Shown: positions 5,683-40,467, counted from the stretch's first letter. The stretch: DNA of 64,000 nucleotides from Candidatus Dormiibacterota bacterium (GCA_963708605.1 CAVPTG010000011.1:76639-140638), one strand, 5' to 3'. Numbers and translations: made by a program. Notes: generated from the letters alone by a model not told the origin.

Positions 5683-5700
5683 GACGCTACCAATCATACG

Positions 5701-6655: not shown

Positions 6656-8236
6656 CTAGTCCGTCGCCGTGCTCGTTGCCTCGGCGGCGTATCGAGGGAG
6701 ATGCACGTCGTCCGAACCGGCGAAACGCATCGATCCAGCGACGAGGTGGTGGCCCGCAACCTCGTCGATGAGCCGGAGCATCTCCTTGCAGAGTTGCCGG
6801 TAGCTCGGGTGCCCTTGCGGAGACGTGCGCAGCTCGATCATGTGCATCGCCTCGCGAGCGTTGAGCTTGATGAGGTATCGCATGCGATGACCGAGGGTGA
6901 CGAGGTACGCGGCCTGCTGCGGGAAGGCGTCGACGATCTCGCGGTACGCAGCCTCGGCCTCCCTCACGGCCACGTGCCATCGCTCCCCGAGCCCGGCGTC
7001 GACCACCGCGTCGGGCACCTCGTACCCGAGCGTCGGCGTCAATTCCTGCCACTGCAGCGTGAGCATGCGATGGCGCTGCAGATCGCGGAATGCGCCATAG
7101 TCGGAGATGACCTCGAAGGTGTAGTCGCAGTGCTCGAAACCGCGTCCCGGACGGTGGCGACGGTTGCCCCGATGCCCCACGGCGGCGGCGAACAGCTCGG
7201 CACGACCCACGTCCGAGAGCGGCCGCACAGCGGCGAGCAAGCGTTCCTCTGACGCATGCGAATAGGGAAACAGCGCAGCGGCGAGGATGCGGTCCTCGCC
7301 GTCGCCATCCCAATCGACCAATGTCACACCGGGCGGCCCCCATTCGTTCTCGGGGGACAGGACGCCGGCATCACCGGCGAGGGCGGCCGCGGTCTCGCGC
7401 AGGTAATCGACCCACGCGCCGCCGCGATCGGGGCGGTCGAGGCGGGTCAGGAACTCCGGGATCAGCCGCTGGAGCTCGGTATTGATGAGCTCCGCATAGG
7501 CTCGCGCTTCCGGCAACGGGTGGGCGCGGAGACGGAGGACCAGCTGCTCGTATGCCTGCGGTGAGGCGAACATGCCGACGTTGCTCACCGTCCCGGCCGG
7601 GAGCAGCCCGCGCATCAGGTCGAGCGCCAGCGCGCGGATGGCCCGCTTGCGGGCGTTCGCGTCCGGCTCCTGCGGCAGCGTCTCGTCGAGATGCTTCGTC
7701 AGCGGCTCGCGCAACTCCGAATAGGTGTCGAACAGCATGTCCATGGCGCGGAGGTAGGTGGCTCCGAGCGGCGACGCGACCACCTCGCGGTCACGGAGGT
7801 AGCGATAGTGACCGTCGCGGCGGTCGGTGTATGGGATGTAGCGCGTCGACTGTTCGAGGTAGGCGGCGAGCCGCCCCCATTCGATTGCCTTGGCAAGCGG
7901 CTGCGAGACCTGCTCGCAGGCGAGATGCACTCCCGCGAGCTGCGCCACCGAGTCGTCCCCGTACTCCGCGAGCACCCGGCCGAACAGATCCGAGGCACGC
8001 TCGCGCCCGGCATCACCGGTTGTCGCGCCGGCCCGGTCTGCGCCGGCGAGGAACTCGTCGACGAGCAGGCGGCGAAGGCTCTTCGAGCTGCGGCTGTAGC
8101 GCGCGAACAGGGCCGCAGCGGTCACCTGGGGCAGGTTGGTCAGGGCGAACACCGGCAGGTTGAGGTTGGTCACGTGCGGCGCGAGCAGCGCCTGCTCTTC
8201 GGCCGTGAAGGCTTCGACGTAGTAGTCGGCGTTCAT
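6656..8236 (-). CDS. double-length ThyX (Thy1)-family, FAD-dependent thymidylate synthase-like protein
   Basis: ATG 8236 (MNADYYVEAF), 526 aa. The C-terminal half carries a ThyX-type region DYGAFRDLQRHRMLT (RHRxxS with Thr for Ser) and NAREAMHMIELRTSPQGHPSYR. Confidence 0.55.
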   Translation of the reverse strand: MNADYYVEAFTAEEQALLAPHVTNLNLPVFALTNLPQVTAAALFARYSRSSKSLRRLLVDEFLAGADRAGATTGDAGRERASDLFGRVLAEYGDDSVAQLAGVHLACEQVSQPLAKAIEWGRLAAYLEQSTRYIPYTDRRDGHYRYLRDREVVASPLGATYLRAMDMLFDTYSELREPLTKHLDETLPQEPDANARKRAIRALALDLMRGLLPAGTVSNVGMFASPQAYEQLVLRLRAHPLPEARAYAELINTELQRLIPEFLTRLDRPDRGGAWVDYLRETAAALAGDAGVLSPENEWGPPGVTLVDWDGDGEDRILAAALFPYSHASEERLLAAVRPLSDVGRAELFAAAVGHRGNRRHRPGRGFEHCDYTFEVISDYGAFRDLQRHRMLTLQWQELTPTLGYEVPDAVVDAGLGERWHVAVREAEAAYREIVDAFPQQAAYLVTLGHRMRYLIKLNAREAMHMIELRTSPQGHPSYRQLCKEMLRLIDEVAGHHLVAGSMRFAGSDDVHLPRYAAEATSTATD

Positions 8237-21833: not shown

Positions 21834-23131
21834 ATGGGTGAGGGGGTTCGCGACGACCCGACCACCGGCCGCATGGTGTGGACGGTGATTCGGCGCGTCC
21901 GCCGCGCCGCCCTCGCCACTGGCGCGGTGATCGCGGTTGCAGCGAGCATGAGTGCCGTCGCCGTCCGGAGTGTCGCCGACGTTCAGCCGGGGCCGTCGAG
22001 CCAGGGGACGGGCGCTCTGACCCACGGCAAGCTGGTGGCGGGTGCGGGAGGCACCTACCTTCCCATCATCCCGGCGGGGATCACGCCGGGCGGCTCCGAC
22101 CCCCGGAATCCACTCACCGTCCCGCCACCGGGCGTCAATCCGCAGGGCATGAGCTGTCCGGTGGTGCGCCGCGTCCACGGCCCCGGCGGCGGGATCGTCC
22201 TGGTGCTCTCCATCCTCCCGACCTTCACGAAGAACGGAGCGGGCGGCTACGACGGCACCGATTCTCGATTCGGCTATGCGGTCGCCGGCGCGATTCCACC
22301 GGGCGGGAACCCTGCGGATACCGCCATCGGAAGCCCCGCCACGGCGGCCAACGTCGGTGGTCACGTGGTCGCGGTCACGGCATTCCTCCGCACGCGGGGC
22401 ACGTGGGTGGACGCGCAGCCGGTCGCACCCTATGGGGGAGCTGCCAGGGCGCCACCTTCGTCTTCAGCTCTCCATACCTGGCCGGTGACGCACCCGCTCC
22501 GGAGCCGCCGGTCAGCGTGCTCTCCACGCCGCCTTTCCCGATCGGCGCGAACCTCGAAACCGCGCTGACCCGCAACTGGACGGTGGGCACCGTCGACATG
22601 ATCCCTGGCTCCTCGACCACGTCGCGGACCTGGGTCCATGTCCCCACCTGCGTATGGATGGCGTCGACGGTGCCCACCGCGGCTGAACCCTCTCATGCGC
22701 TCACCTCCACGGTGGTGGGCGGGTACACGCTCTTCCTCCTCTACGACGTCACCGTGACTCCCGGGACCGTCGCATGGAACTGGGGCGACGGCACCTCCTC
22801 GGTCGCATCGGGTCCGGTCGAGCGCGGGCCCGCACGCCTGCCGGCATACGACCCATCGACGCAACGCTGGACCGACCCGTGCGCGGTGAGCCATAACTAC
22901 ACGGCCGTCTCGACCGGCGCGACCATCACGGCGACCGAGACCTTCACGGTCACGATCACGGTCAGCTGGAGCGACGGTGTCGCGATCCACACCGAGCCGG
23001 TGGCATGCGACGCAACGACGGGTGGCGCCTGCCGCCTGACGATCGGCCCGCGTGACGGTTGGCAGAGCGGTCCGCATCCCGTCGACCAGATCGAACCGGT
23101 GCCCTTTCAACCGGCCTCACCCGCGCCGTAA
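21834..23131 (+). pseudogene. secreted/anchored protein with PKD-like domain, one frameshift
   Basis: N-terminal anchor RRAALATGAVIAVAASMSAVA. C-part has WNWGDGTSS ... SHNYTA ... TFTVTITVSW (PKD-like). The junction APYGG|SCQGATF sits at G5 run 22434-22438. The span is 3n+2, read as one missing G. Alternative start 21873. Confidence 0.55.
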
Positions 23132-23144
23132 CCGGTCCTCAGAA

Positions 23145-24680
23145 TCAGCGGCTGCGCAGCGACCTGCCGGTCATCTCGGCCGGCACGGGGAGGCCCATCG
23201 CATCCAGGACGGTCGGCGCGATGTCGCGCAGACCGCCGCCCTCGCGCAGCGGCGCGTCGCCGGCGCCGCAGAGGATCACGGGCACGGGGCTGGTGGTATG
23301 CGCCGTGAGCACCGACCCGTCGCGGCGGTCGATCTTGTATTCGGCGTTGCCATGGTCGGCGGTGATCAGCAGGCCGCCGTGCGCAGTGTCGACCGCCGTC
23401 GCAATACGTCCCAGGCACGCGTCCACGAACTCGACCGCGCGCACCGTCGCCTCGAAAACGCCGGTGTGTCCGACCATGTCGGCGTTGGCATAGTTGGCGA
23501 TGATCAGCGCGTCGTCGCCCCGCTCCAGTCGAGCGATCACCGCGTCGGTGACGCCGGCGGCGCTCATCTCCGGGACGGTGTCGTAGGTCGCGACCCGTTG
23601 GGACGGAACCAGCAGGCGGTCCTCGCCCAGAAACGGTGTCTCCCGTCCACCATTGATGAAGTAGGTGACGTGCGCATATTTCTCGGTCTCGGCGACGTGG
23701 AACTGGCGCAGCCCGGCGGCGCTGACCTCCTCGGCCAGCGTGTGCAGCACGTCCTCGCGTGGGAATGCCACCCGCGCATCGAGGTCCCGCTCGTATTCCG
23801 TGAACGTGACCAGCTCGACGTCGCGCAGCACCCTCGATCGCGGGAAGCCGTCGAAGTCCACGTCCACCAGCGCGTGCGACAGCTCGCGGGCGCGATCCGG
23901 GCGGAAGTTGAAGAAGATGATCGAGTCGCCGTCCTCGATGCGGACGCGCCTGCCGTCGTGCACGATCGACACCGGGGGGATGAATTCGTCGGTGACGTCC
24001 ACCGCGTACTGCGCTTCGATGTATGCGACCGCGTCGGGTGCGACGTTGTCCCCGTCGCCCGCGATGGTCTCGTAGGCGCGCTGGATGCGATCCCAGCGCC
24101 GGTCTCGGTCCATGGCGAAATACCGTCCGGAGACCGATGCGATCGCACCCACCCCCACGGCATCGAGCGCGTCGATGAAGCTGCGGACGAACCCGGACGC
24201 GCTCGCCGGCGGCTCGTCGCGCCCGTCGAGAAACGCGTGAAACCACACCGAGCTGAGGCCGCGGCGACGGGCGAGCTCGGCCAGTGCGACCGCATGATCC
24301 TGATGGCTGTGCACGCCGCCGGGCGAGATCAATCCGAGGCAGTGCAGCGTGGCGCCGCGGTCGCGGGCACGATCCACCGCTTCGCAGAACACGGTGTTCT
24401 CGTAGAAGCTGCCGTTCTCGATGGCGAGGTTGATCGAGACCAGCGGCTGATAGATGAGGCGTCCTGCGCCGATGGTGAGATGGCCCACCTCCGAGTTGCC
24501 CTGCTGGCCGCGTGGAACGCCCACCGCCTCACCGCTGGCGTCGACCGTCGTATGCGGCCAGCGCTGCTCCAGCGTGTCGAGCACCGGGGTGCGCGCGGCT
24601 GCGATCGCGTTCCCGTACGGGTCCGGGTTGCATCCCCATCCGTCCAGGACCACCAGCACGAAGGGCCGTGTCCCGCTCAT
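23145..24680 (-). CDS. gpmI: 2,3-bisphosphoglycerate-independent phosphoglycerate mutase
   Basis: 511 aa. VLVVLDGWG, GNSEVGHLTIGAGR and ITADHGNAE. Confidence 0.95.
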   Translation of the reverse strand: MSGTRPFVLVVLDGWGCNPDPYGNAIAAARTPVLDTLEQRWPHTTVDASGEAVGVPRGQQGNSEVGHLTIGAGRLIYQPLVSINLAIENGSFYENTVFCEAVDRARDRGATLHCLGLISPGGVHSHQDHAVALAELARRRGLSSVWFHAFLDGRDEPPASASGFVRSFIDALDAVGVGAIASVSGRYFAMDRDRRWDRIQRAYETIAGDGDNVAPDAVAYIEAQYAVDVTDEFIPPVSIVHDGRRVRIEDGDSIIFFNFRPDRARELSHALVDVDFDGFPRSRVLRDVELVTFTEYERDLDARVAFPREDVLHTLAEEVSAAGLRQFHVAETEKYAHVTYFINGGRETPFLGEDRLLVPSQRVATYDTVPEMSAAGVTDAVIARLERGDDALIIANYANADMVGHTGVFEATVRAVEFVDACLGRIATAVDTAHGGLLITADHGNAEYKIDRRDGSVLTAHTTSPVPVILCGAGDAPLREGGGLRDIAPTVLDAMGLPVPAEMTGRSLRSR

Positions 24681-24686
24681 CCCGCG

Positions 24687-25487
24687 CTACGCGGTCGCAC
24701 GGGGTCCGGCGTGCGCCTCGGACGCGGCGACGACGATGACGCCGAATTCCTCGGCGCGCAGGCTCACACCACCGACCAGCGCGCCGTCGATGTCCGGCTC
24801 CGCAAACAGCGACGCCGCGTTGGCGGCGGTGACGCTGCCGCCGTAGAGCACGCGCGGGGCACCGTCGAGGTACCTGGCTCGCACGTGCCGCTTGATGTGC
24901 GCGACCACCTCCTGCGCCTGCTCCGGCGTCGCGGTGCGGCCGGTGCCGATCGCCCAGACCGGCTCATAGGCGATCACCCAGTCATCGACGGACGGTGGAC
25001 CTTCGACCTCGGCGAAGACGGCATCGAGCTGGCGCTCGACCACGTCGAAGGTGCTGCCGGCGTCGCGCTCATCGCTGGTCTCCCCCACCGCCACGATCAC
25101 CTGAAGCCCGTGCGCGAGCGAGGCGACGAACTTCTTCCCGACCTCGTCGTCGCGCTCGCCGAAGAGGTGTCGTCGCTCGGAGTGACCGACGAGCGTGAGG
25201 TCGCACCAGCCTGCGAGCATCGCCGGTGAGATCTCGCCGGTGAAAGCGCCGGCATCCTTGTAGTACACGTCCTGCGCGCCGAGTCGGACGCCCGTGCCGT
25301 CCAGCACCGCGCGAACCGCCCACAGGTGGGTGAATGGGGGCAGCACAGCCACGTCGACGCCGGTCGTCCCCGCGACGGCGGCGCACACCGCCTGCGCGAG
25401 GGCAATGCCCTCGTCGACGGTCGTGTTCATCTTCCAGTTCCCGGCGACCATCGGCCGCGACGCCGGGCCGCTCCGGGACGGGATCAA
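24687..25487 (-). CDS. tpiA: triose-phosphate isomerase
   Basis: SRPMVAGNWKMN, GHSERR, IAYEPVWAIGTG and YGGSV. The internal ATG (25451) would remove the conserved R-x-P before AGNWKMN. I therefore prefer TTG 25487, which forms a TTGA overlap with the pgk stop. Confidence 0.9.
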   Translation of the reverse strand: MIPSRSGPASRPMVAGNWKMNTTVDEGIALAQAVCAAVAGTTGVDVAVLPPFTHLWAVRAVLDGTGVRLGAQDVYYKDAGAFTGEISPAMLAGWCDLTLVGHSERRHLFGERDDEVGKKFVASLAHGLQVIVAVGETSDERDAGSTFDVVERQLDAVFAEVEGPPSVDDWVIAYEPVWAIGTGRTATPEQAQEVVAHIKRHVRARYLDGAPRVLYGGSVTAANAASLFAEPDIDGALVGGVSLRAEEFGVIVVAASEAHAGPRATA

Positions 25488-26686
25488 CGCCGCGCCACCT
25501 CGCGATCGCGCAGCGCCGCGACGCCGGGCAGCGTCCTCCCCTCGAGGAACTCGATGGTCGCGCCGCCGCCCGTGCTGATAAAGCCGATCTTGTCGGCAAC
25601 ACCTGCGTCCTGGACGGCGGCCGCGAGGTCGCCCCCGCCGATCACGGTGGTGGCCTTGGATGCCGCGACCGCGCGAGCGACGTCGCGCGTCCCGGTCGCG
25701 AACGCGGGAATCTCGTAGATGCCCAGCGGGCCGTTCCAGATGATCGTCCCGGCTGAGGCGCAGTCGGCGGCGATGCTCGCGACCGTGTCGGGTCCGGCGT
25801 CGACCACCATCCACCCGTCGGGGATCGCCTTCCAGGCGGCAATCTGGGTCGGGGCATCGGCCGCAACCCGCTCGACGACGACGCCGTCGACGGGAAGGCG
25901 CAGATCGGCGCGCCGTCCCGGAGCCGAGTCGAGGAGGCGCCGCGCGGTGGGCACCTCATCCTCCTCGACGAGCGACGTTCCCGTGCTCTCGCCGAGGGCG
26001 CGATAGAACGTGCATGCCATCGCACCGCCCACCCAGAGCACGTCGACGCGGTCGAGGAGATGGTCGAGCACCCCGACCTTGGTCGAGATCTTCGACCCCC
26101 CGACAATCGCCACGACCGGCGTGCGCGGGTTGTCCATCACGCCTCCGAGCATCTCCAGCTCGCGTGCCATCAGCTTGCCGGCAACCGCCGGAAGCAGGTG
26201 CGCAACGCCCTCGGTCGATGCGTGCGCGCGGTGGGCTGTGCCGAACGCGTCGTTGACGTACACCTCCCCGAAGGCGGCGAGCCGCCTCGCGAACGCGGGA
26301 TCGTTGGCCTCCTCGCCGGGATCGAAGCGGACGTTCTCGAGCATGCCCACGTCGCCGTCATGCAGCGAATCGACCATGCTCTGGGCGCTGTCGCCAACCA
26401 CGTCGGAGGCGAGGCGCACGTCCGCACCGAGCAGGCTGCTCAGTCGGGCCGCGATGGGTCCCAGCCGCGCGCTGTCGTCGATCCTGCCTTTGGGGCGGCC
26501 AAGGTGAGCCACCACGATCACCCGGGCGCTTCGAGCCCGGAGCGCCTCGATGGTGGGGATCGCCTCGCGGATCCTGCGATCATCAGTGATCGCGCCATCG
26601 CGCATCGGGACGTTGAGATCCTCGCGCAGCAGGACTCGCTTCCCGTGCACGTCGATGTCATCGATGGTCGCCTTGGACAGCGCCAT
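25484..26686 (-). CDS. pgk: phosphoglycerate kinase
   Basis: ATG 26686 (MALSKATIDD), 400 aa. RVLLREDLNVP, VVAHLGRPKG, YVNDAFGTAHR and GGGDLAAAV. Confidence 0.95.
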   Translation of the reverse strand: MALSKATIDDIDVHGKRVLLREDLNVPMRDGAITDDRRIREAIPTIEALRARSARVIVVAHLGRPKGRIDDSARLGPIAARLSSLLGADVRLASDVVGDSAQSMVDSLHDGDVGMLENVRFDPGEEANDPAFARRLAAFGEVYVNDAFGTAHRAHASTEGVAHLLPAVAGKLMARELEMLGGVMDNPRTPVVAIVGGSKISTKVGVLDHLLDRVDVLWVGGAMACTFYRALGESTGTSLVEEDEVPTARRLLDSAPGRRADLRLPVDGVVVERVAADAPTQIAAWKAIPDGWMVVDAGPDTVASIAADCASAGTIIWNGPLGIYEIPAFATGTRDVARAVAASKATTVIGGGDLAAAVQDAGVADKIGFISTGGGATIEFLEGRTLPGVAALRDREVARR

Positions 26687-26694
26687 CCTGTCTC

Positions 26695-27729
<1,035 letters not shown>

Positions 27730-28644
27730 TCAGCGCCTGCGGACACGTACTTCCACCCTATCACCGCCCTCACCCGCCGCGGCGACCAGGCGATGCAGCC
27801 GCCCGGCCATCGCGGGCCTGCTGCAGCCGGCCAGCTCCGCCAGATGCGCCAGGTCGTCGTCGGGGTGGAGGGACCGGAGCTCAGCGGCCTCGCGGAGCGC
27901 GGGCGGCAGCGCCTCCCAGCGGACTGCATCGGCCTCGAGCGCGGCGATCGACTCCAGCTGGCGCACCCCCGCCGCTGCCGTCCTGCGCAGGTTGGCGGTC
28001 TCGGCGTTGAGACGGCGGTTCACGCCGTTGCGAACTTCGCGGATCACCCGCCCTGCCTCGAAGGTCAAGCGCCCCGCCTGTGCGCCGATGGAGCTCAGAG
28101 CGTCGCCCACCGCGGGACCGGAGCGCACCGTGACCACCCACCGCCCCCGCCGCCGTCGGGTTCGCGCGCTGACCCCGAGGCTCACAAGATCAGCGACCAG
28201 GCGGCGCGCGCCGGATTCGTCCGCGCAGCCGATCTCGAGGTACGGCTCACCATCGGGACGCACCAGACGGCCGGCGCCGAGGAACGCGCCCCGGAGGCGG
28301 GTCCTCCGGCAGCAGGTTTTCTCTGAGGACGGCTGCAGCGTCGCGGCATCGATGCCAACCACCACGTAGTGGGTGCGTCTCGCGGCCACGACACGTGAGA
28401 CATGGGCCGGGATCCCGTCGGCATGGAGCGCCTGCATCGCTGCGCGCACCGCGACCGGCCGTGTGGTCGCGATCGCACCCGGAACCGCAGTCACCAGCGC
28501 AAGACCCTCGACGAGCGAGCGCCGGCAGCACGGTAGCAGTGGTGTGTACGGCGCCAGTTCAGCGACGACCCGCTGCGTGAAGGAAAGCGCCGCGTCCGCT
28601 CCTGACCTCGGATGCGCCCGGCGTGCTCGTGTATGGGGGGTCAC
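27730..28644 (-). CDS. whiA: DNA-binding sporulation/cell-division regulator WhiA
   Basis: SFTQRVVAEL N-terminus, LAGLIDADG-like middle and a C-terminal HTH (LAHLAELAGCSRPAMAGRLHRL). I prefer GTG 28644, which gives a GTGA overlap with the upstream stop. Alternative GTG 28671. Confidence 0.85.
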   Translation of the reverse strand: MTPHTRARRAHPRSGADAALSFTQRVVAELAPYTPLLPCCRRSLVEGLALVTAVPGAIATTRPVAVRAAMQALHADGIPAHVSRVVAARRTHYVVVGIDAATLQPSSEKTCCRRTRLRGAFLGAGRLVRPDGEPYLEIGCADESGARRLVADLVSLGVSARTRRRRGRWVVTVRSGPAVGDALSSIGAQAGRLTFEAGRVIREVRNGVNRRLNAETANLRRTAAAGVRQLESIAALEADAVRWEALPPALREAAELRSLHPDDDLAHLAELAGCSRPAMAGRLHRLVAAAGEGGDRVEVRVRRR

Positions 28645-31600
28645 GTCCTGGCGCTGGATGGAGCGCTCCACGCGGATTCGACACGTCGCGCGTATGCGAC
28701 CCCTGCGGGTGCTCGTTTGCTCTCGTAGAATGCCGTGGCGCGCCTGGACTGCTCGAGTGCGCCGGTGACGCTTCCCGACAGAAACAACACCTCGCCCAGC
28801 GCGAGCGCGGCCTCGGCCTTCTCGAATGGCGCCTGCGTCGACGCTGCGAGTTGCGCGGCGCGTTCCGCGAGGTTGAACGCCTCAGCGAAGTCGCCACTGC
28901 GTGCGAGGACCTTCGCGCGAACTTCGAGGCCGAGCAGCTGGGTGAAGATGTCATCGGCACCTCCCAGCTCCAAGCCTCGCAGCGCCCGCTGGTCGGCCTC
29001 GTCGTAGCGGCCGAGCGCGTACAGCGCTTCACCGAGCTGGCACTCCTGTGTCGAGAGCCACGAACGCTCTCCCAGTTGCTCGAGCTCTTCCACGCCCTGC
29101 CTGGCGACATGCTCAGCAGCCTCGAGGTCCCCTGCCAGCGTCTCGATCTGCCATGCGGACTGCATCGTGATGGCGGCGTAGACGGTCATTCCCCGTTCGC
29201 GGAACTGAGCAAGGGCATCGGCGAAGAGCGATCGTGCCTCGGCGAACTCTCCTTCGAAAGCAAGACAGTAGGCCATCCAGACCGGGAGAAACGGTTGGAA
29301 CCCGCGGTTCTCCTGCTGGTCACGCTCGAGCCACGCCAGCGCTTCGTCGATCGGCATCGATCCGTTGGTCACGGCCGCCGCCGCGAACGCTCGAGAGCTG
29401 TTGGCCATCCAGGGTTCTTCCGCTTCGAGTGCGTGTTCCCTGGCACGCGTGATCGCCACCAGCGCGGCGTCGAACCGGCATCGATAATGGTGGATGAACC
29501 CAGCGGCGATCTCGAGCGCCGCCAGGGCGCTGTGGTCGTGGCTGCGTTCGATCTCGGGCCGGGCGCGCTCGACCAGTGTGATCAGCGCATCCTCGTATGC
29601 CACGGGATCGACGTTGCCTCGCCACATCGTCCCCATCAATTGCGCCTGCAGCGCCCGAATCGGCAGACCGGCAGACGTGTACCGCGCCGCTGCCCTGTCC
29701 GCACGTTCGATTGCCTCGTTCAGGCGGCCGGCCTCCACCACTGCTTGCATGAGCACCTCCTCGAGTTCGAGCTCGATGTGCCCATCGGGAAGCAGGCGTT
29801 CCGCCCGCTCCATGAGGTTGATGGTCGCCGGAGGGTCACCGCGGTCGAGGGCGCGCCTGCCGGCCGCCAGGAGCCTCGCGGCGCCCGCCGTCGCGATGGC
29901 GCGAGCGGTCTCATCCACCGGTCCGAGCTCGGCGCGATATCGGTACGCCTGCTCCAGGTGGTAGCCGGCAATCTCGTCGAGTTCCTCGAGGTCACTGCCG
30001 TGATGGATGAGCCAATCCGCGAACCGCGCATGCAACTCGGCGCGCTCGGACTTGGGCAGTGAGTCGTATGCGGCGTCCCGGATGAGCAGATGCCGGAACG
30101 TGAACGCGTCCTCACCGGCGAAGACAGGACGGTCAGGACGCAGCAGGTCCTTGCGCACCAGCGTCATGAGCCGCCCCGCAACGTCGCGCTCGTCGGGCGC
30201 CATCTGCTCGACCGCGCCGCGATGGAACGATTGCCCCTCGATCGAACCGCGCTCGAGCACGCCACGCTCCTCGGGCTTGAGCTGGTCGAACCGCGCGGCC
30301 AGCAGTGCCTTGATGTTCGGCGGAACGATCACATCGTGATTGCCGGATTCCCGCACCATCGCGACGATCTCCTCGACGAACAGCGGGTTTCCGGCAGCTG
30401 TGGCCCGAACCCGGTCGCGAAGCTCTTTGGAGATTGCTCCGTCCGCCGAAAGCAGCTCGTCGAGCAGTGCCTCGGTATCGGCGGCATTGAGCGGCTCGAG
30501 CAGCACCGTGGTTGCATTGAGCTTGCCCCCGCCCCATCCCGGCCGCCTTTCAAGGAGCTCGGGACGGCCCAGGCACAGCAGGAGGATGGGAGCGTCGCGG
30601 CTGAAGTCGCCGATGTGTTCGATGAGGTCGAAGAGGGTCGGCTCACCCCAGTGCACATCGTCGAAGATCACCGCCAGCGGCTTCTCCTCCGCGGCGGCCT
30701 CGAGCAGCTTCCGCACCGCCCAGGCGATCTCGGTTGACGACGTGGTCACCGTGGCGTCGCCGAGGATTGTCCTGAGTGGCGCGGCCACCGCGCCGTCACG
30801 CTCCATGAGCGCTGCTGCACCGGCACCGGCGGGCGTGGCGAGCAGCTGCTTCATCATCGTGATCACGGGCCAGTACGTGATGCCCTCTCCGTATGACAGG
30901 CACCGCCCGCGGAGCTGGATCGCATCGATGCCGGCCAGGAACTCGGCAGTGAGCCGCGTCTTTCCGACCCCTGCAGCGCCGAGGATGGTGAACATGCTGC
31001 ACGACCGCCCGTCGACGACATTCGCAAAGGCGTCGTTGAGCATGCGCAGCTGGGTGCCCCGCCCCACCATCGGTGCCCCGATGCCATTGTGGGTGTCGCG
31101 CTTCCCACTTCCCAGTGCCACCAGTCGGTATGCCGACAACGGCAGGCTCTTCCCCTTGAGCTCGAGGGGCGCGAGCGGTTCGACGTTCACGTCGTCACGG
31201 ACCAGTCGCCACGTCTCGGGACCGATGACGATCTCGCCGGGCGCAGCGGCCTGCTCGAGACGCGCCGCCACGTTGACCGCATCACCGGTGGCGAGTTGCT
31301 CCTCGGTCCCCGTGACCACCTGACCTGTGTTCACGCCGGTACGCACCATGACCGTGGTCCCGTAGTCGCGCTCCAGCTCGCTGTTCAACACAGCGAGGGC
31401 ATCACGCAGTCCCACCGCCGCACGAACCGCTCGCAGCGCGTCGTCCTCGTGCAGCACAGGCACACCGAACACGGCCATCACGGCGTCACCGATGAACTTC
31501 TCCACCGTCCCACCATGCTGTTCGATGACCTTGCGCGCGGCGTCGAAATAGCGATGCATCACCTGACGCAGGCTTTCCGGATCCAACCGCTCGCCCATCG

Positions 31601-31748
31601 CCGTCGAGCCGGTGACGTCGCAGAAGAGCACCGTGACGGTCTTGCGCTGTGCCCTCGGAGCCGGCGCGGTGGTCAGCGGCGAGCCGCAGCCGTTGCAGAA
31701 TCCCGCGTCGGCGGCATTCTCCCTTCCACAGTTGGCGCACGTGCTCAC
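28641..31748 (-). CDS. zinc-ribbon / class III adenylate-guanylate cyclase / STAND (AAA_16-type) ATPase / TPR protein
   Basis: 1035 aa. CANCGRENAADAGFCNGCG; cyclase motifs VLFCDVTGSTAM, FIGDAVMAVFG and GDAVNVAARLE; P-loop ILGAAGVGKTRL. The last ~550 aa are helical TPR-like repeats. GTG start in a GTGA overlap. Confidence 0.85.
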   Translation of the reverse strand: MSTCANCGRENAADAGFCNGCGSPLTTAPAPRAQRKTVTVLFCDVTGSTAMGERLDPESLRQVMHRYFDAARKVIEQHGGTVEKFIGDAVMAVFGVPVLHEDDALRAVRAAVGLRDALAVLNSELERDYGTTVMVRTGVNTGQVVTGTEEQLATGDAVNVAARLEQAAAPGEIVIGPETWRLVRDDVNVEPLAPLELKGKSLPLSAYRLVALGSGKRDTHNGIGAPMVGRGTQLRMLNDAFANVVDGRSCSMFTILGAAGVGKTRLTAEFLAGIDAIQLRGRCLSYGEGITYWPVITMMKQLLATPAGAGAAALMERDGAVAAPLRTILGDATVTTSSTEIAWAVRKLLEAAAEEKPLAVIFDDVHWGEPTLFDLIEHIGDFSRDAPILLLCLGRPELLERRPGWGGGKLNATTVLLEPLNAADTEALLDELLSADGAISKELRDRVRATAAGNPLFVEEIVAMVRESGNHDVIVPPNIKALLAARFDQLKPEERGVLERGSIEGQSFHRGAVEQMAPDERDVAGRLMTLVRKDLLRPDRPVFAGEDAFTFRHLLIRDAAYDSLPKSERAELHARFADWLIHHGSDLEELDEIAGYHLEQAYRYRAELGPVDETARAIATAGAARLLAAGRRALDRGDPPATINLMERAERLLPDGHIELELEEVLMQAVVEAGRLNEAIERADRAAARYTSAGLPIRALQAQLMGTMWRGNVDPVAYEDALITLVERARPEIERSHDHSALAALEIAAGFIHHYRCRFDAALVAITRAREHALEAEEPWMANSSRAFAAAAVTNGSMPIDEALAWLERDQQENRGFQPFLPVWMAYCLAFEGEFAEARSLFADALAQFRERGMTVYAAITMQSAWQIETLAGDLEAAEHVARQGVEELEQLGERSWLSTQECQLGEALYALGRYDEADQRALRGLELGGADDIFTQLLGLEVRAKVLARSGDFAEAFNLAERAAQLAASTQAPFEKAEAALALGEVLFLSGSVTGALEQSRRATAFYESKRAPAGVAYARRVESAWSAPSSART

Positions 31749-32155
31749 AGCCGTGGATCGTGCACGTCGACGTCGCGATGGGTCACGGAAACCGTGAGAC
31801 CGTCACCGCGCAGCCGTTCTGCGAGTGCCTCGACAATCACCACGGATCGATGCCTCCCACCGGTGCAGCCCACCGCGAGGCTCAGCCCATCCTTGCCTCG
31901 TTCCGCGTTGCGTTGCGCGGACCACGATACCAGCGCGTGCGTCCGATCGATGAGCTCGCGCGCCACCTCATCCCCGAGGACGTAATCGCGCACCGCATCG
32001 TCGAGCCCGGTGAACGAGCGCAGCTCGGGGACCCAGAACGGGTTGCGCACCATGCGAGCGTCCACGACCCATCCGGCTTCGGCCGGAAGACCGAACTTGA
32101 AACCGAACGACGTCATCGTCATCGCGATGTCCGATGCCTGTCCCTCCGCGCTCAC
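31745..32155 (-). CDS. rapZ: RapZ (YvcJ) C-terminal domain only; no N-terminal P-loop domain
   Basis: 136 aa. SFGFKFGLPAEAGWVVDARMVRNPFWVPELR and LAVGCTGGRHRSVVIVE match the C-terminal half of RapZ. The GTG start overlaps the uvrC stop (GTGA), leaving no room for the Walker-A domain. Confidence 0.7.
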   Translation of the reverse strand: MSAEGQASDIAMTMTSFGFKFGLPAEAGWVVDARMVRNPFWVPELRSFTGLDDAVRDYVLGDEVARELIDRTHALVSWSAQRNAERGKDGLSLAVGCTGGRHRSVVIVEALAERLRGDGLTVSVTHRDVDVHDPRL

Positions 32156-34170
32156 AGCAGCTCCTTCACCCGCAACGCCACGGGTCGCGGGACCACGGTG
32201 GTGAGCTGCTCGAGCGGCGCGTCGCGGATGGCATCGATGCTGCCGAAGTGACGGAGCAGCGCCCGTCGACGCACCGGACCGAGGCCGGGCACCACGTCGA
32301 GCTTCGATCGCAGCGCCGCACGCGCGCGGCGGCCGCGGTGGTGGGTGATCGCAAATCGATGGGCCTCGTCGCGCACTCGCTGCACCAGGAACAACGTCGG
32401 GCTGTCCCGCTCGATGATGATCGGGCGCGCGCGACCTGGCTTGTACAGCTCCTCGTTGCGCTTGGCGAGCCCGAACACGGGAACCCTGGTCAACCCCGCC
32501 TCGCGCAGCGCTTTGACCGCTGCGCTCAACTGCCCCTTGCCGCCGTCGATCAGGATGAGGTCGGGCAGGACCGAGAAGCTCAGGTCGGCATCGTCACCAC
32601 CGCGCGGCGTCCGTCGCGGCCGCTCGTTGGTCCCGTTGGCTCCCGCCGGGTCGAGCACCGGGATGTCCAGGTCTGGCCCATCCTCACGCGGGCCGAGGCG
32701 CCGGAAGCGGCGGCGCAGCGTCTCCTCGATGGATGCGAAGTCGTTGGAACCCTCGACGGTTTTGATCCCGAAATGACGGTAGGCGGCGGGCGCCGGACGT
32801 CCGTCCTCGAAGACCACCATCGAGCCCACCGAGTTCGTGCCCATGGTGTTGCTGATGTCGTAGCACTCGATCCGCCGCGGCGGTGCTCCGAGCTGCAGAC
32901 GCGTTGCGAGGTCATCGAGCAGCGCCTCGGTCTTGGCGGCGTCGTAATCATCGACGATGCGCTGCTGACGCAGCGCCACAAGCGCTGTCTCCGCCGCCTG
33001 CGCGATCAGACGCCGGGCGTCGCCGCGTTTTGGGACGTGCACCTCGACCGGACCGCCGCGCTGCTCAGCGAGGAACTCCTCGAACACCACGCGATCCTCG
33101 ATGTCGTCGGACACGAGGAGACGGCGCGGAATCGAGGTGACATTGGCGTAGTACTGCGGAAGAAAGGCCCCGAGGCATGCGGCGGCATCGAGCCCGGCGA
33201 CGCCCTCGAGCTCGTGCGTTTCCATCGCCATCACGCGACCCTGGCGGATGCTCAGCACCGCGGCCATGGCACGCCCCGCCTCGACCGCGACCGCGATGCA
33301 GTCCTCGTCGGACCGCGCGCCGCGCAACACCGTCTGGCGTTCGCTGATGCGCTCGATGGCGCGCAGCCGGTCGCGAAAACGCGCTGCCAGCTCGTAATCG
33401 CGATTGTCCGCGGCCGCATCCATCTGGTCGCGCAGCTCGTCGTGCAGGGTGTCCGACCTGCCCTCCATGAACTCCTGGACCTGCTCGAGGATCTCCGCGT
33501 ATTCCGGGCCGTCGATCTTCCCTTCGCAGGGTCCCGAGCACCGTTTGATGTGGTAATCGAGACAGACGTGTCCGCGACGGAAGATCTCGTCGCTGCAGGT
33601 GCGGAACGGGAAGATGGTCCGCAGCGATCGGACGGTGGTTCGCAACGACTGCGCACTGGTGTACGGCCCGAAGTAGCGGGCGCCGTCGCGGATCACCTTG
33701 CGCGTGTAGTACGGCCGGGGGAACTCCGTCGCGCCCTCGGCGCTCTTGCCTCGGGGTTTGCGGACCTCCTCACGGGCCGTGCCCGGAGCCACCGCATCGT
33801 GCACGCCGGGGCGCGGGATCTTGAGGTAGAGATAGCTCTTGTCGTCCTTGAGGCGCACGTTGAAGCGCGGGCGGTGCTGCTTGATGAGCGTGTTCTCGAG
33901 GACCAACGCCTCATGCTCGCTCTGACACGCGATGACCTCGAAGTCGAAAACGCTCGAGATCAACTGATGGGTGCGTGGCTGGAGCGCGTCGATACCCGAG
34001 AACCAGGAGCGCAAACGGTTGCGCACGTTCGAAGCCTTGCCCACGTAGATGACCCGCGCGTCTACACCGCGCATGACGTACACGCCGGGGCCGTCCGGCG
34101 AGGCGCGCAGACGTGCCCGGAGCTGCGCCTTGTCATCAAGGAGGCGCTCTGGTCGCCGCGGGGCCGCCAT
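32152..34170 (-). CDS. uvrC: excinuclease ABC subunit C
   Basis: ATG 34170 (MAAPRRPERLL), 672 aa. GIY-YIG motif PGVYVMRG...IYVGKA, then HRPRFNV, and a C-terminal HhH (LLRHFGSIDAIRDA). Confidence 0.95.
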   Translation of the reverse strand: MAAPRRPERLLDDKAQLRARLRASPDGPGVYVMRGVDARVIYVGKASNVRNRLRSWFSGIDALQPRTHQLISSVFDFEVIACQSEHEALVLENTLIKQHRPRFNVRLKDDKSYLYLKIPRPGVHDAVAPGTAREEVRKPRGKSAEGATEFPRPYYTRKVIRDGARYFGPYTSAQSLRTTVRSLRTIFPFRTCSDEIFRRGHVCLDYHIKRCSGPCEGKIDGPEYAEILEQVQEFMEGRSDTLHDELRDQMDAAADNRDYELAARFRDRLRAIERISERQTVLRGARSDEDCIAVAVEAGRAMAAVLSIRQGRVMAMETHELEGVAGLDAAACLGAFLPQYYANVTSIPRRLLVSDDIEDRVVFEEFLAEQRGGPVEVHVPKRGDARRLIAQAAETALVALRQQRIVDDYDAAKTEALLDDLATRLQLGAPPRRIECYDISNTMGTNSVGSMVVFEDGRPAPAAYRHFGIKTVEGSNDFASIEETLRRRFRRLGPREDGPDLDIPVLDPAGANGTNERPRRTPRGGDDADLSFSVLPDLILIDGGKGQLSAAVKALREAGLTRVPVFGLAKRNEELYKPGRARPIIIERDSPTLFLVQRVRDEAHRFAITHHRGRRARAALRSKLDVVPGLGPVRRRALLRHFGSIDAIRDAPLEQLTTVVPRPVALRVKELL

Positions 34171-34196
34171 CGTGGTCACAACTGCAGTATCGCTGC

Positions 34197-36236
<2,040 letters not shown>

Positions 36237-38460
36237 TCACGGGTCCGCGATCGGCCAGAGCGTCGCGTCGGCGACCGCGAAGATCTTGACGCCGTGGTCG
36301 TCGAATTTGATGACCAGCTCCTCACCGCCTCTGGTCATCGTGCTCTTGAGCACCGTGCCCTCACCGTAACGCTGATGACCGATGCGCATGCCCTCGGTGA
36401 ACCGCTGCGGGGCAAGCTCCACGGGGTTCGGCCGCGTCGCGTAGCCGACGATGGCGCGGCGGACCGTTCCGGACGCACGGATATCCCCCAGCGAGGGCGC
36501 GCCCGGACGCAGCTGGACCTCGAGCATCTCCGCTGGGATCTCGCCGAGGAAGCGCGACGCCTCGGCCAGCTGCGGCGTCCCGTAGGTGTGACGCCGGAAT
36601 GCATGCAGGAGATAGAGACGGCGGCGGGCGCGGGTGATCCCGACATAGGTCAGGCGGCGCTCCTCGTCGATACCCGCGTCGCCCTCCTCGAGCGCGCGCG
36701 AGTGCGGCAGGAGCCCCTCCTCCATGCCGGCGACGAACACCACGCCGAATTCGAGACCCTTGACCTGGTGCAGGGTGATCAGCGTGACTCCCTGCACCTC
36801 GTCGCGCATGCTGTCGACGTCGCTGACCAGCGCGACGTTCTCGAGGAACTGCACCAGCCCATCGGGCGGCGGCACATCCGAGTATTCGCCGGCGAGCCCG
36901 GCCAGCTCGAGGACGTTCGCCCAGCGCTCCACGCCTTCCTGCGTCCCGTCCTGGAGCATCTCGCGGTACCCGGTCTCGTCGAGGACTCGTTCGAGGAGCA
37001 CTGGCAACGGGACCCGCTGCGCGTCTGAGCTCAGCCGTTCCATGAGGGTCGCAAAGCTCCGCAGCGCCGTCATCGCCGCGGGTCCGAGGGCCTGGTCGCC
37101 CTCGTCGAGGCGCTGGGCCGCTTCGAGCGGCGCCAGTCCCTTCTTGCGCGCGAGCTTCTCCAGCTCGGTGACGCTGCGATCGCCGATCTTGCGGCGCGGG
37201 GTGTTGACGACTCGCGCGAACGAGACCGCGTCGCGCGGGTTGACGCAGAGGCGCAGATAGGCGAGGACGTCCTTGACCTCTTTGCGGTCGTAGAAACGGA
37301 GACCGCCGACCAGCTGATATGGGATACCGCGCCGGAGGAAGACCTCTTCAAAGGCACGCGACTGGGCGTTGGTTCGATAGAGCACCGCGCATTCGGCGAG
37401 CGTCACTCCCTCGCGACCGATGAGATTCTCGATCTCCGAGCCGACCGCGAGCGCCTCCTCGCGCTCGTCGTACACGGAGATGAGACGAACCGGTTCACCG
37501 ATGCTCTGCTCGGTCCACAACCTCTTCTCCGCGCGCTGACTGTTGTTGCGGATCACCGCGTGGGCGATGTCGAGAATCGGTTGTGTGGAGCGGTAATTCT
37601 GCTCGAGCACGACCTTGCGCGCATCGGGAAAGTCGTGTTCGAACGACAGGATGTTGCGCACGTCCGCGCCCCTGAAGCCGTACACGGCCTGATCATCATC
37701 TCCGACCACGGTGACGTTGCGGTGTTTCGCGCCGAGGATCTTCACCAGCTCGTACTGGGCCTTGTTGGTGTCCTGGTACTCGTCGACAAACAGATGCAGG
37801 AAGCGATCCTGGTAGTACTCGCGCACCGAGTTCGGCTTCACGGAACAGCGTCACCGCGCGCAGCAGCAGGTCGTCGAAATCCAGCGCCGCGGCCGCATCG
37901 AGCTCGCGCTCGTACGCCCAGTAGATGCGCGAGATCTGCTCGTCCATGGTGTTCGGTGTCACCCGGGCCTGGAAATCGCGCGCGTCGAGCAGCTCGTTCT
38001 TGGCAGCGCTGATCGCATGCGCCGCACGGCTCGGGGTGAGGCGTTTCTCGTCGATGCCCTCGGCGCGGATCGCGTTGCGGATGGCCGACAGGCGGTCCGC
38101 CTCGTCGTAGATGGTGTAGCCGGAGGGAATGCCGATCGCCTCACCCTCGCGACGCAGCAGGCGCGCACCCAGCGAGTGGAACGTGCCGAGCCACATGCCG
38201 CGGATGCTGTCCCCGATCAGCTGCTCCACGCGAGCACGCATCTCGCGGGCCGCCTTGTTGGTGAAGGTGACGGCGCAGATCTCGTCGGGGCGCACGCGCC
38301 GTGTCGCGATCACGTACGCGATCCGGTGCGTGAGCACGCGGGTCTTGCCGCTGCCGGCGCCGGCAAAGATGAGCAGCGGTCCATCGGGGGCCTCGACGGC
38401 CTCACGCTGGGGCGGATTCAGCCCCTCCAGCAGGGCCGTCGCCCCGATCGTCGCGCTCAG
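36237..38460 (-). pseudogene. pcrA: ATP-dependent DNA helicase PcrA/UvrD, one frameshift; non-canonical (CTG?) start
   Basis: Walker A LLIFAGAGSGKTRVLTHR is encoded at about 38340-38395, upstream of the first ATG/GTG/TTG in that frame. Also TFTNKAAREM, FVDEYQDTN and VVGDDDQAVYGFRGA. The frames join at about 37838-37846 (TLFR|KPNSVREYY). The span is 3n+1. Confidence 0.85.
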
Positions 38461-39332
38461 GCGTGCGCCCCGGTCGCGGGCGCCGGACTCCCCGTCGATG
38501 CGCGGTACGCATCGGGCCGGCGATCGGCGTGCAGATGGTTGCGCGGGGTGCGCCGTCTCGCCTGTTCGACGGAATCGAGGTCGACGTCGGCGATGAGCAA
38601 CTCCTCCTGATCCTTGCTCGCCGGGCCGGACACCGGCCAGCCATCGGCTCCGACGATGATCGACGCCCCGATGAACGTGACCCCCCGCTCGACGCCGATG
38701 CGATCCGCGCAGGCCATGACCACGCCGTTCTGAGCGGCCGTCGCCATCGCCACATAGTCGCCCTGGCAGTACCCGCGGTCGTCCCAGACCGTGCGCTTGA
38801 AGGACGCCACCCAGTTGGTCGGCACCGCGATGATCTCGGCGCCGGCGAGCGCCAGCGCCCGAGCGGGCTCCGGGAACCAGAGGTCGAAGCAGATGATCAT
38901 GCCGACCCGCCCGAACGGGAGGTCGACGATCGGCAGGTCATCGCCAGGCTGGAACCAGGTCTGCTCGTCGTAGTACAGGTGCAGCTTGCGATACGTCGCC
39001 ATGCGGCCCGACGCGCCGATCAGGACCGAGCTGTTGTGCCTGCAGTCACCGTCGCGCTCGCTGATGCCGGCGACGATGTGACATCCGTGCATGGCGCAGA
39101 CCTCGCGAAGCGCCCGGACGGTCGGCCCGTCGTCGGGGTCCTCGGCGGCGCGCTGCGCTTCGGCCTCGTCGCCGAACACGTAGCCACTCGACGCCAGCTC
39201 GGGAAGCACGATGAGGTTCGCACCCTGCTCGGCCGCCGCGGTCGCCCACAGCACCGCCTGTGAGCGGTTGTGCTCGAGCTCGCCGACGTGCGGCTCGTAC
39301 TGGGCGACGGCGATGCGGACGGGACGGCTCAT
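38457..39332 (-). CDS. carbon-nitrogen hydrolase (nitrilase superfamily) protein
   Basis: ATG 39332 (MSRPVRIAVAQ). Glu-Lys-Cys triad context LPELASSGY, YRKLHLY and MIICFDLWFPE. Confidence 0.8.
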   Translation of the reverse strand: MSRPVRIAVAQYEPHVGELEHNRSQAVLWATAAAEQGANLIVLPELASSGYVFGDEAEAQRAAEDPDDGPTVRALREVCAMHGCHIVAGISERDGDCRHNSSVLIGASGRMATYRKLHLYYDEQTWFQPGDDLPIVDLPFGRVGMIICFDLWFPEPARALALAGAEIIAVPTNWVASFKRTVWDDRGYCQGDYVAMATAAQNGVVMACADRIGVERGVTFIGASIIVGADGWPVSGPASKDQEELLIADVDLDSVEQARRRTPRNHLHADRRPDAYRASTGSPAPATGAHA

Positions 39333-39336
39333 ACGC

Positions 39337-40467
39337 TCACGGTAGCGCAGCAGGAGTGACACCAGGATGACGCGGGATCCCCTCCGAGATACCGCACAGG
39401 ATCTCGTGCGGCAGGGTGCCGGTCAGCTCACCGACCTCGTCCGCGCCGATGCGAACGCCGGCGTGTTCGCCGATGAACATTGCGGTGTCTCCCGGGGCGA
39501 TGCCCTCCACCTCCGTGACGTCGACGCCGACCTGATCCATGCTCACGATCCCGACGATCGGACAGCGACGCCCGCGGATCGCCATGTGCCCGCGGTTCGA
39601 CAGCGCGCGCGGCACACCCTGCCCGTAGCCGAGGGTTGCGGTGGCAATGAGACGCGCGGTCTCGGCACGCCACGTACGTCCATAGCCGACGCTCTCGCCG
39701 CGTGCGACCCGGCGCACCTGGGCGACGCGGCAGAAGACGCTCATCGCCGGCCGGAGTGACGCGGGGCCGGGCACCGGCGGGTAGCCGTAGAAGGCGATGC
39801 CGGCGCGCACCAGATCGTGGTGCATCGCCGGATGCGCCAGGATCGCGGCACTGCCGGAGGTGTGGAGCAGCGCACCCGGCGCGACCGCTCGAAGTGCCTC
39901 GACGGCCTCGAGAAAGCGGGCGTGCTGGGTCACCGTGAAGCCCACGTCCTCGGCCGCGTCGGCGAAGTGGGTGAAGATGCCCGCCACGTCGACGCGATCC
40001 CCCGCGTCGCGCACCGCGTCCGCCAGCGATTCCACCGCTTCTGGAAGCACGCCGAGCCGGTGCAGCCCGGTGTCGATCTTGAGGTGCACCCTGGGTCTCC
40101 GACCGCCCGCGGCCGCCAGCACCGCATGCAGCCCGCCGGCATCGAGCACGCTGACGTCGACGCCGGCTGCAATCAGGTCATCGAGCGCTGCGGGCGGGCT
40201 CCAGCCCACCACGAGCACGCGCGTGTCGAAGCCCGCCGCTCGCAGGCTGAGCGCCTCCTGCGGCGTGTACACGCCGAGCCACGTCGCGCCGCCCTCGAGC
40301 GCGGCCCGGGCGGCGATGGTGATGCCGTGCCCGTAGCCGTTCGACTTCACCATGATCATCACCGACGCCGGCCGCACCAGCGTGGCCATCACCTCGGCGT
40401 TCCGCATCAGCGCAGCGACGTCGATCTCCACCCAGCGGAGCTCGCCGTCCCGGGCTCCCGTGGTCAC
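39337..40467 (-). CDS. alr: alanine racemase
   Basis: 376 aa. PLP-Lys motif VKSNGYGHG, then HLKIDTGLHRLG and VSMDQ. GTG start in a GTGA overlap. Confidence 0.9.
   Translation of the reverse strand: MTTGARDGELRWVEIDVAALMRNAEVMATLVRPASVMIMVKSNGYGHGITIAARAALEGGATWLGVYTPQEALSLRAAGFDTRVLVVGWSPPAALDDLIAAGVDVSVLDAGGLHAVLAAAGGRRPRVHLKIDTGLHRLGVLPEAVESLADAVRDAGDRVDVAGIFTHFADAAEDVGFTVTQHARFLEAVEALRAVAPGALLHTSGSAAILAHPAMHHDLVRAGIAFYGYPPVPGPASLRPAMSVFCRVAQVRRVARGESVGYGRTWRAETARLIATATLGYGQGVPRALSNRGHMAIRGRRCPIVGIVSMDQVGVDVTEVEGIAPGDTAMFIGEHAGVRIGADEVGELTGTLPHEILCGISEGIPRHPGVTPAALP

Follow-up and report, generated by a model that had tools for sequence, protein, structure and literature searches.

A RapZ C-terminal domain gene between uvrC and whiA

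The subject of this analysis is a minus-strand row of genes in a 64,000-nucleotide (nt) stretch of DNA (the window, in whose positions coordinates are given) from Candidatus Dormibacterota, uncultured bacteria of soil. In this row a shortened rapZ gene and a gene encoding a 1035-amino acid (aa) class III nucleotidyl cyclase joined to a STAND (signal transduction ATPase with numerous domains) NTPase lie side by side between uvrC and whiA. Pfam and NCBIfam assignments give the order uvrD/pcrA, ligA, uvrC, the 136-aa rapZ_C, the 1035-aa cyclase-STAND gene, whiA, gap, pgk, tpiA and iPGM, within a region of ~67–70% G+C. An original prediction, made before any database was searched, had described a rewired uvrC-rapZ-yvcK-whiA block with the cyclase gene in the position of yvcK, and its account of the flanking uvrC, whiA, gap, pgk and tpiA genes agrees with these assignments.

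The identification of the 136-aa open reading frame (ORF; 31745..32155) as the C-terminal half of RapZ and nothing more, as had been proposed, is based on a strong match to PF22740 (E = 1.1e-39, residues 12–129) and on the NCBIfam RapZ model NF003828, which is matched only at positions 155–278 of 278 (137.7 bits versus a cutoff of 244). The N-terminal P-loop domain that carries Walker A, PF03668, has no Pfam match in the 136-aa protein, and because the GTG start of rapZ_C overlaps the TGA stop of uvrC there is no upstream coding room for this domain, just as the original prediction had read. Direct reading of the sequence reveals GTGA stop/start overlaps at three junctions (32152–32155, 31745–31748 and 28641–28644), such that the cyclase gene (28641..31748), with an overlap at both ends, is indeed translationally embedded between rapZ_C and whiA. 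A Shine-Dalgarno sequence, AAGGAG (32161..32166, minus strand), lies 5 nt 5' of the rapZ_C GTG inside the end of uvrC, and the AAGGA(G/A)CTNCTGTGA junction is common to trimmed and full-length relatives. The uvrC gene itself (32152..34170; NCBIfam UvrC NF001824, E = 1e-161) encodes 672 aa from an ATG at 34170, a form that agrees with the gene calls in relatives. For whiA there are two candidate GTG starts, at 28644 and, for the longest ORF, at 28671; the former overlaps the cyclase TGA stop and yields a gene (27730..28644) of 304 aa, in line with the 302–304-aa gene calls in relatives, with matches to TIGR00647 (E = 1e-38), LAGLIDADG_WhiA and HTH_WhiA. A near-identical layout was assembled independently in a 156-kb JGI contig, whose cyclase is 95% identical and whose RapZ_C falls in the same 90% cluster, and many further contigs show it as well. 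With its junctions recurring in independent assemblies, the layout is no product of misassembly.

Each of the 120 best homologues of the 136-aa protein has a length of 125–144 aa and PF22740 only. Where named, they come from Candidatus Dormibacterota metagenome-assembled genomes (MAGs), and the closest homologues of both RapZ_C and the 1035-aa protein are found in named MAGs of this phylum. The motifs SFGFK, NPFW.PELR, GCTGGRHRS and HRD..DPR are kept at ≥98% among these homologues, the first ~10 residues are variable, and the pairwise ratio of nonsynonymous to synonymous substitution rates (dN/dS) of rapZ_C is 0.17–0.20. The conserved motifs and low dN/dS indicate that rapZ_C is a functional gene family and not a local decay product. 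The trimmed RapZ is thus a property of a whole Dormibacterota clade rather than of one genome.

Full-length RapZ (~270–295 aa, with Walker A) occurs in the related Dormibacterota loci L010, L011, L116, L120, L123, L125 and L127 and in L009, from a MAG labelled Chloroflexia. The uvrC-rapZ junction AAGGAGCTNCTGTGA is common to the full-length L116/L120 and to the trimmed lineages; it is followed by the Walker A domain in the former and by ~10 variable codons and then SFGFK in the latter. Because this start junction is shared, the trimmed RapZ must have arisen by in-frame internal deletion, which took the P-loop N-domain, ~130–140 codons, and retained the GTG start, the AAGGAG site and the coupling to uvrC. 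On neighbor-joining (NJ) trees of RapZ_C and WhiA, which are without support values, the trimmed clade is sister to L116/L120. Trimming is also seen elsewhere: L122 groups with the full-length lineages and has its own, tighter deletion, an independent trimming, and the Oscillospiraceae MAGs L035 and L042 carry RapZ C-domain-only genes in murB-rapZ_C-whiA order. The main clade, L122 and L035/L042 together imply that the N-domain has been lost at least three times. The two Oscillospiraceae genes (L035 ~9990–10360, MKLYLTSFGRKYG...; L042 ~6360–6725, MRIEITSFGRNYG...) immediately follow murB and precede whiA, and neither an N-domain nor yvcK is present. The uvrC-rapZ junction is another variable site in Dormibacterota, in that a divergently oriented two-component system (histidine kinase and OmpR-type response regulator) lies between uvrC and full-length rapZ at 7223–9336 of L010, and L011 has a uvrC-rapZ gap of the same size.

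The absence of yvcK at this position, as originally claimed, is upheld; the claim that the cyclase gene sits in a "YvcK slot" is not. PF01933 (YvcK/GlmR) has no Pfam match in the 136-aa or the 1035-aa protein, and tblastn of the window with queries from other loci, two for YvcK and three for the RapZ N-domain, returned nothing (best E = 0.04). In ~45 Dormibacterota-related loci, trimmed and full-length, yvcK was found neither between rapZ and whiA nor in the fetched flanks (up to 10 kb on each side where the contig allowed), and no N-domain gene was found in the window or in these ~45 loci. A second, full-length rapZ or a yvcK in the same genome, beside which the 136-aa ORF might be a duplicate, was likewise not found within the window, nor beside the trimmed gene in the related loci. 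In the eight loci listed above with full-length RapZ, rapZ lies directly before whiA, an adjacency shared by several loci of Actinomycetota (Naasia, Agrococcus, Gaiellales) and by some of Oscillospiraceae. Since the slot was already empty in relatives with full-length RapZ, the cyclase did not replace yvcK.

What might a RapZ C-domain do by itself? RapZ_C aligns residue for residue, end to end, with the crystallized Escherichia coli RapZ C-terminal domain (CTD; PDB 5O5S, E = 5e-23). Of the pocket, dimer and RNA-binding residues described for the E. coli protein (PMC5737377), the pocket residues T248, G249, H252 and R253 (E. coli numbering) are kept, as is the dimer-interface Asp D182, and H190 is replaced by Phe; the remaining Gram-positive-type RapZ sequences that were read have Phe or Tyr there. 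The RNA-binding residues K270, K281, R282 and K283 correspond to L120, V131, H132 and D133, and the family consensus C-terminus is acidic (VDVPDPRL); judging from these residues, RNA binding of the E. coli type seems unlikely for RapZ_C. The E. coli CTD alone dimerizes and binds RNA but cannot direct RNase E (PMC5737377), and it binds glucosamine-6-phosphate (GlcN6P) with a KD of 10 nM, the N-terminal domain (NTD) being auto-inhibitory (PMC7073468). When separated, the E. coli NTD and CTD each fold and homodimerize (PMC7073468), and the interactions with RNase E and QseE/F need both domains (PMC5737377, PMC7073468). Firmicutes YvcJ depends on its N-domain, specifically on the Walker A Lys, to bind UDP-N-acetylglucosamine (UDP-GlcNAc) (PMC10986989). 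By analogy, we infer that RapZ_C is a dimeric phosphosugar/amino-sugar binding module. What the N-domain contributes, NTP/UDP-GlcNAc binding and the recruitment of partners, would be gone.

A scan of the window with Rfam gave no RNA family, and hence no glmS ribozyme and no GlmY/GlmZ-like RNA. A glmS gene, with a glutamine amidotransferase domain and two SIS domains, is present at 56838–58670 on the minus strand, ~25 kb from rapZ_C. GlmS, the GlcN6P synthase, is under the control of RapZ in E. coli and of GlmR in Bacillus. Beside glmS, at 55586–56830 on the same strand, lies a holo-ACP synthase (ACPS) fused to an NAD(P)H-hydrate dehydratase (Carb_kinase).

The cyclase-STAND-TPR protein and its distribution

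The architecture originally proposed for the 1035-aa protein, a zinc ribbon, a cyclase, a STAND core and tetratricopeptide repeats (TPR), is borne out by Pfam matches. The N-terminal CxxC...CxxC zinc ribbon (aa 4–25, 31674..31739) matches Zn_Ribbon_1 at E = 1e-4, below the Pfam cutoff, and its C4, C7, C18 and C21 are invariant among 44 homologues. The class III cyclase domain that follows (aa 34–201, 31146..31649; PF00211 Guanylate_cyc, E = 2.7e-21) matches CyaB (3R5G) with E = 3e-28 and contains metal-binding D44 and D88, specifying K84, phosphate-binding R136 and transition-state N159 and R163, which are invariant in the same 44 homologues. Its dimerization arm is ~6 residues shorter than that of CyaB, which we take to be a class IIIc-like trait. 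The STAND NTPase core (AAA_16, aa 227–389, 30582..31070; PF13191, E = 9e-19) has an intact Walker A, GAAGVGKT from aa 257, and an intact Walker B, AVIFDD from aa 359. The remainder leads into an all-helical TPR sensor region (~aa 601–1030, 28659..29948) that scores 31.8 against a cutoff of 30.1 for TPR_12 and 33.1, below the cutoff of 45, for TPR_MalT. An AlphaFold2 (AF2) model has a mean predicted local distance difference test score (pLDDT) of 80, with helical repeats above 90 from ~residue 560 to the C-terminus, and among multi-domain PDB structures it is matched best by the STAND-TPR protein 6MFV (E = 4e-10), with Avs3 (8DGC) third. No C-terminal LuxR/GerE helix-turn-helix (HTH) was found in a Pfam scan of the 1035-aa protein with E up to 0.01. 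The TOMM kinase/cyclase fusion model TIGR03903 reaches 187.7 bits against a cutoff of 705.75, and only its cyclase and ATPase portion is matched. A second, unrelated class III cyclase of 555 aa is encoded at 9718–11385 of the window (minus strand); its layout is the reverse, with N-terminal TPR and a C-terminal cyclase, and it shares 25% identity with the 1035-aa protein in the cyclase domain.

The protein belongs to a very large cyclase-STAND-TPR paralogue family (>8000 matches), the members of which differ most in the sensor. Mean pairwise identity across paralogues is 82% for the zinc ribbon and cyclase, 71% for the NTPase and 76% for the middle region, and falls to 54% for the TPR region, the most divergent part. 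The corresponding dN/dS values are 0.07–0.08 for the cyclase domain and 0.28–0.30 for the TPR region, at similar dS, and 0.17–0.18 for the whole protein. The similar dS and the lower cyclase dN/dS argue that the conserved effector reflects purifying selection and not recent gene conversion.

The distribution of the gene was surveyed from homologue contexts, genome loci and a metagenome scan with WhiA; a genome-contig scan with RapZ_C, dominated by the universal GCTGGRH motif, added at least 5 related loci plus full-length RapZ and YvcK comparators. A cyclase gene lies between rapZ_C and whiA in 13 of ~33 trimmed-RapZ loci versus none of the 8 full-length loci (Fisher exact p ~0.03–0.04, a statistic that ignores kinship). 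One copy is present in the window, L007, L088, L100, L108 and L118, two copies are present in L004/L099, L087, L092 and L112, and three short contigs have the gene with copy number unclear; ~20 distinct trimmed loci, including L093, have none. With such variation in copy number, the cyclase cannot count as a fixed part of the block. The idea that the tandem cyclases form a C1/C2-type heterodimer with complementary degenerate sites was rejected, as both copies keep all catalytic residues. Of 9 cyclase-bearing loci, at least 8 retain the stop/start overlap of 4 nt with rapZ_C. The cyclase-whiA junction ranges from a 4-nt overlap to a ~34-nt gap, or ~200 nt in the case of L087, whose second copy is apparently damaged. 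That copy appears to be frameshifted, comprising 978 aa and a separate 3' fragment. The gene calls of the same locus (1379–7579, from a long-read MAG) merge uvrD, ligA and uvrC into one product of 2066 aa, almost certainly through an error of assembly or annotation.

The slot cyclases form one clade, the nearest outside paralogue, P0176, being 65% identical and in an unrelated context, and each of the two main branches of the trimmed clade contains cyclase-bearing loci. Taken together, these observations make one insertion, with later duplication and recurrent loss, the simplest history. We infer that the present patchiness came about via loss, recombinational exchange, or both. Some support for recombination comes from the comparison of the window with L093, in which a backbone nucleotide identity of ~91% drops on both sides of the indel, to 80% in rapZ_C and 76–83% in whiA. 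The RapZ_C of the window is 78% identical in amino acid sequence to that of the cyclase-free L093, the uvrC products being 98% identical, and 84–86% identical to those of the cyclase-bearing L004, L100 and L118, for which uvrC identity is 91–95%. RapZ_C similarity follows cyclase presence better than backbone relatedness, a pattern that suggests that the rapZ_C-cassette-whiA segment may have been exchanged between lineages. A search for deletion scars in cyclase-free loci gave no remnant, the rapZ_C-whiA spacers being only ~3–90 nt, and the spacers do not tell whether the gene was lost or gained.

The remaining neighbors are also on the minus strand. Downstream of whiA lie gap (26695..27711) and, at 23145–26752, pgk, tpiA and iPGM, all identified by Pfam. 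Upstream of uvrC are ligA (34197–36230, Pfam/NCBIfam) and uvrD/pcrA (36237–38421). The latter is frameshifted near 37831, as the 727-aa protein of L002 aligns by tblastn first in frame -2 (aa 1–197) and then in frame -3 (aa 197–726), and the break either marks a true pseudogene or stems from an indel introduced in sequencing or assembly. Some relatives (L004, L088) have an intein in uvrD/pcrA, and the window copy is without one. Further upstream (40464–43137), a glutamine amidotransferase-asparagine synthase-F420-0:gamma-glutamyl ligase-like gene is read as overlapping ORFs of 284 and 634 aa; it is one 890-aa ORF in L002 and L003 and likewise split in L001, and the fusion of Asn_synthase to F420_ligase is unusual in itself.

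Candidate mechanism and competing explanations

How do the two departures fit together? In one clade of Dormibacterota the uvrC-rapZ-whiA-gap-pgk-tpiA row carries a trimmed RapZ together with a variable cyclase-STAND cassette of zero to two copies, and we consider the following account probable. An in-frame deletion removed the RapZ N-domain and left an autonomous 136-aa C-domain at the ancestral start, and a cyclase-STAND gene would have been inserted once between rapZ_C and whiA and then duplicated. By analogy with the STAND-TPR class, in which multimerization is inducer-driven and ATP-dependent (PMC6468293), the TPR sensor would hold the NTPase core in a closed, ADP-bound state until binding of an inducer leads to ATP-dependent multimerization. 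Multimerization would in turn pair the N-terminal cyclase domains, whose active sites take shape only in a dimer, so that cAMP or another cyclic nucleotide monophosphate (cNMP) may be made. The stop/start overlap with rapZ_C and the position just before whiA make co-expression of the cassette with rapZ_C likely. Promoter and terminator scans over 23000–39500 gave nothing beyond shuffled expectation and are uninformative on operon boundaries. A direct functional link of the cassette to RapZ_C or WhiA is no more than possible, on the basis of position, coupling and the weak association described above. The cassette is best regarded as long-resident but dispensable, and translationally coupled to rapZ_C. 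Of the proposal that it is wired into WhiA/RapZ control, the position and overlaps stand, but no RapZ_C residue signature tracks cyclase presence. The only co-varying residues, K88 and G90, are confined to one subclade and were rejected as a sign of co-evolution. The parts and junctions of the block are likewise confirmed; to call it "rewired", and to put the cyclase in the YvcK slot of a control locus, overstates the case.

Several observations weigh against this probable account. L093, the closest relative of the window (uvrC 98% aa identity, backbone ~91% nt identity), is without the cassette, which argues that the cassette is dispensable for the function of the block. The uvrC NJ tree places L116/L120 inside the trimmed clade, and in view of this conflict it is likely, though not certain, that the main clade was trimmed only once. 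A canonical purine-specifying pair consists of Lys and Asp/Thr for ATP or of Glu and Cys/Ser for GTP. In the cyclase domain the Asp/Thr position is L152, such that the cNMP product (cAMP, cGMP or other) cannot be assigned, and the active-site loops are of low confidence in the AF2 model. The yvcK and N-domain negatives are confined to the window and related loci, and a gene for either may lie elsewhere in the genome. Finally, a search for a stand-alone RapZ N-domain with that of L120 as query returned only full-length Dormibacterota RapZ of 265–273 aa and "partial" fragments at contig ends, all at ≤59% identity, and is a weak negative, being so insensitive that the query's own protein was not retrieved.

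The foremost alternative is that the cyclase-STAND genes are accessory genes, akin to nucleotide-binding leucine-rich repeat receptors (NLR-like) and possibly acting in anti-phage defence or conflict, at a permissive recombination hot spot, so that their position is incidental and without any tie to RapZ_C or WhiA. Presence that differs between close relatives (the window and L093), the lower identity beside the indel, tandem duplication and copy-number changes would all be expected of such genes, as would a conserved effector with a divergent sensor in a paralogue family of >8000 matches; moreover, the AF2 model resembles Avs3 and the cyclase domain matches Pycsar PycC models. The PycC matches were rejected as evidence of a defence system, since PADLOC gave only generic cyclase-domain matches and no Avs/STAND model, and no cNMP-responsive effector gene is adjacent. 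The slot cyclases are moreover monophyletic and at one site across lineages ~30% apart in protein sequence, the overlap with rapZ_C persists in nearly all cyclase-bearing loci read, the TPR dN/dS is well short of a value >1, and the flanks are housekeeping genes rather than a defence island. On balance we regard an accessory or defence role as rather unlikely, though far from negligible.

A more ambitious extension of the mechanism favored here is that of a two-part sensor, in which a RapZ_C dimer would bind GlcN6P or a related phosphosugar and present its state to the STAND TPR region, multimerization would start cNMP synthesis, and loss of the N-domain would have freed the C-domain for this task. 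It is suggested by the occurrence of the cyclases only beside trimmed RapZ, with a stop/start overlap, and we hold it to be a long shot. If true, it would couple amino-sugar or cell-wall precursor status to a second messenger acting with WhiA on growth and division. A split RapZ, in which an N-domain encoded elsewhere in the genome acts in trans with RapZ_C and nothing has been lost, is highly improbable. It accords with the independent folding and homodimerization of the separated E. coli domains (PMC7073468) and with the restriction of the N-domain negatives to the window and related loci, but neither the window nor the ~45 loci contain an N-domain, and the search with the L120 N-domain, weak as that evidence is, points the same way. 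The idea that decay, misassembly or misannotation produced the 136-aa ORF could draw on the apparent frameshifts in uvrD and the asnB-like gene of the window, which indicate assembly errors in the record, but is effectively refuted by >120 protein clusters of the same length class from NCBI, ENA, JGI and Logan assemblies, the dN/dS and invariant functional motifs noted above, and a conserved start codon and Shine-Dalgarno sequence.

Relation to known systems

The original prediction knew of no description of this arrangement, and a literature search found no published description of a clade-wide RapZ trimming or of a rapZ_C-whiA cyclase-STAND cassette. The role of RapZ/YvcJ outside Enterobacteria and the division of labor between its domains are little understood, and the trimming is a natural experiment on both: the N-domain was dropped and the C-domain kept under purifying selection in a clade and at least two independent lineages, in an operon without YvcK. 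Recurrent trimming under purifying selection implies that the RapZ C-domain is a selectable unit on its own, and the trimmed lineages offer a clean system in which to ask what it binds and does. Cyclase-STAND proteins are common in Actinomycetota, including Mycobacterium tuberculosis, and are barely characterized. In Dormibacterota the cyclase-STAND-TPR family is very large, and one sub-lineage has a stable, translationally coupled place in a core operon, which makes it a tractable entry to how STAND switches drive class III cyclases.

The nearest single object to RapZ_C among known RapZ/YvcJ proteins (E. coli RapZ; Bacillus subtilis and Enterococcus faecalis YvcJ) is the isolated RapZ-CTD construct of PDB 5O5S. 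RapZ_C shares with this family the C-terminal phosphofructokinase-like domain, the GCTGGxHRS pocket, the dimer-interface Asp and, as in Gram-positive bacteria, a position between uvrC and whiA. It differs in being without the P-loop N-domain and the basic RNA-binding tail, in having no YvcK/GlmR gene in the operon and in scoring below the equivalog cutoff. With YvcK/GlmR/CuvA (PF01933) the cyclase gene shares only its place in the row, between rapZ and whiA; there is no sequence or domain similarity to the 1035-aa protein.

For the cyclase-STAND-TPR protein, comparison with three groups is instructive. With the MalT-clade STAND-TPR NTPases (Pyrococcus horikoshii PH0952/6MFV, MalT, AfsR) it shares the AAA_16 core, Walker A and B, a helical arm and a C-terminal TPR sensor, and it differs in its effector, which is an N-terminal zinc ribbon and class III cyclase rather than a DNA-binding domain. 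The mycobacterial proteins Rv0386, Rv1358 and Rv2488c have the architecture cyclase-ATPase-TPR-LuxR HTH. The 1035-aa protein presumably resembles this type in its N-terminal class III cyclase with a short arm and a non-canonical specifying residue, followed by a STAND-type ATPase and helical repeats; it differs in the absence of a detected LuxR/GerE HTH, the extra zinc ribbon, the retention of K84 and its rapZ-whiA operon. Its cyclase domain matches Pycsar PycC models (E = 2e-20), and its effector-STAND core-repeat sensor layout and variable copy number are like those of Avs3 and other Avs proteins. The differences from Pycsar and Avs are that its neighbors are rapZ_C and whiA, that no cNMP-activated effector is adjacent, that no PADLOC STAND model is matched, and that it resides in a housekeeping context under purifying selection. 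All of the parts of this locus belong to known families, and the row is a lineage-wide variant that leaves the current understanding of these families standing.

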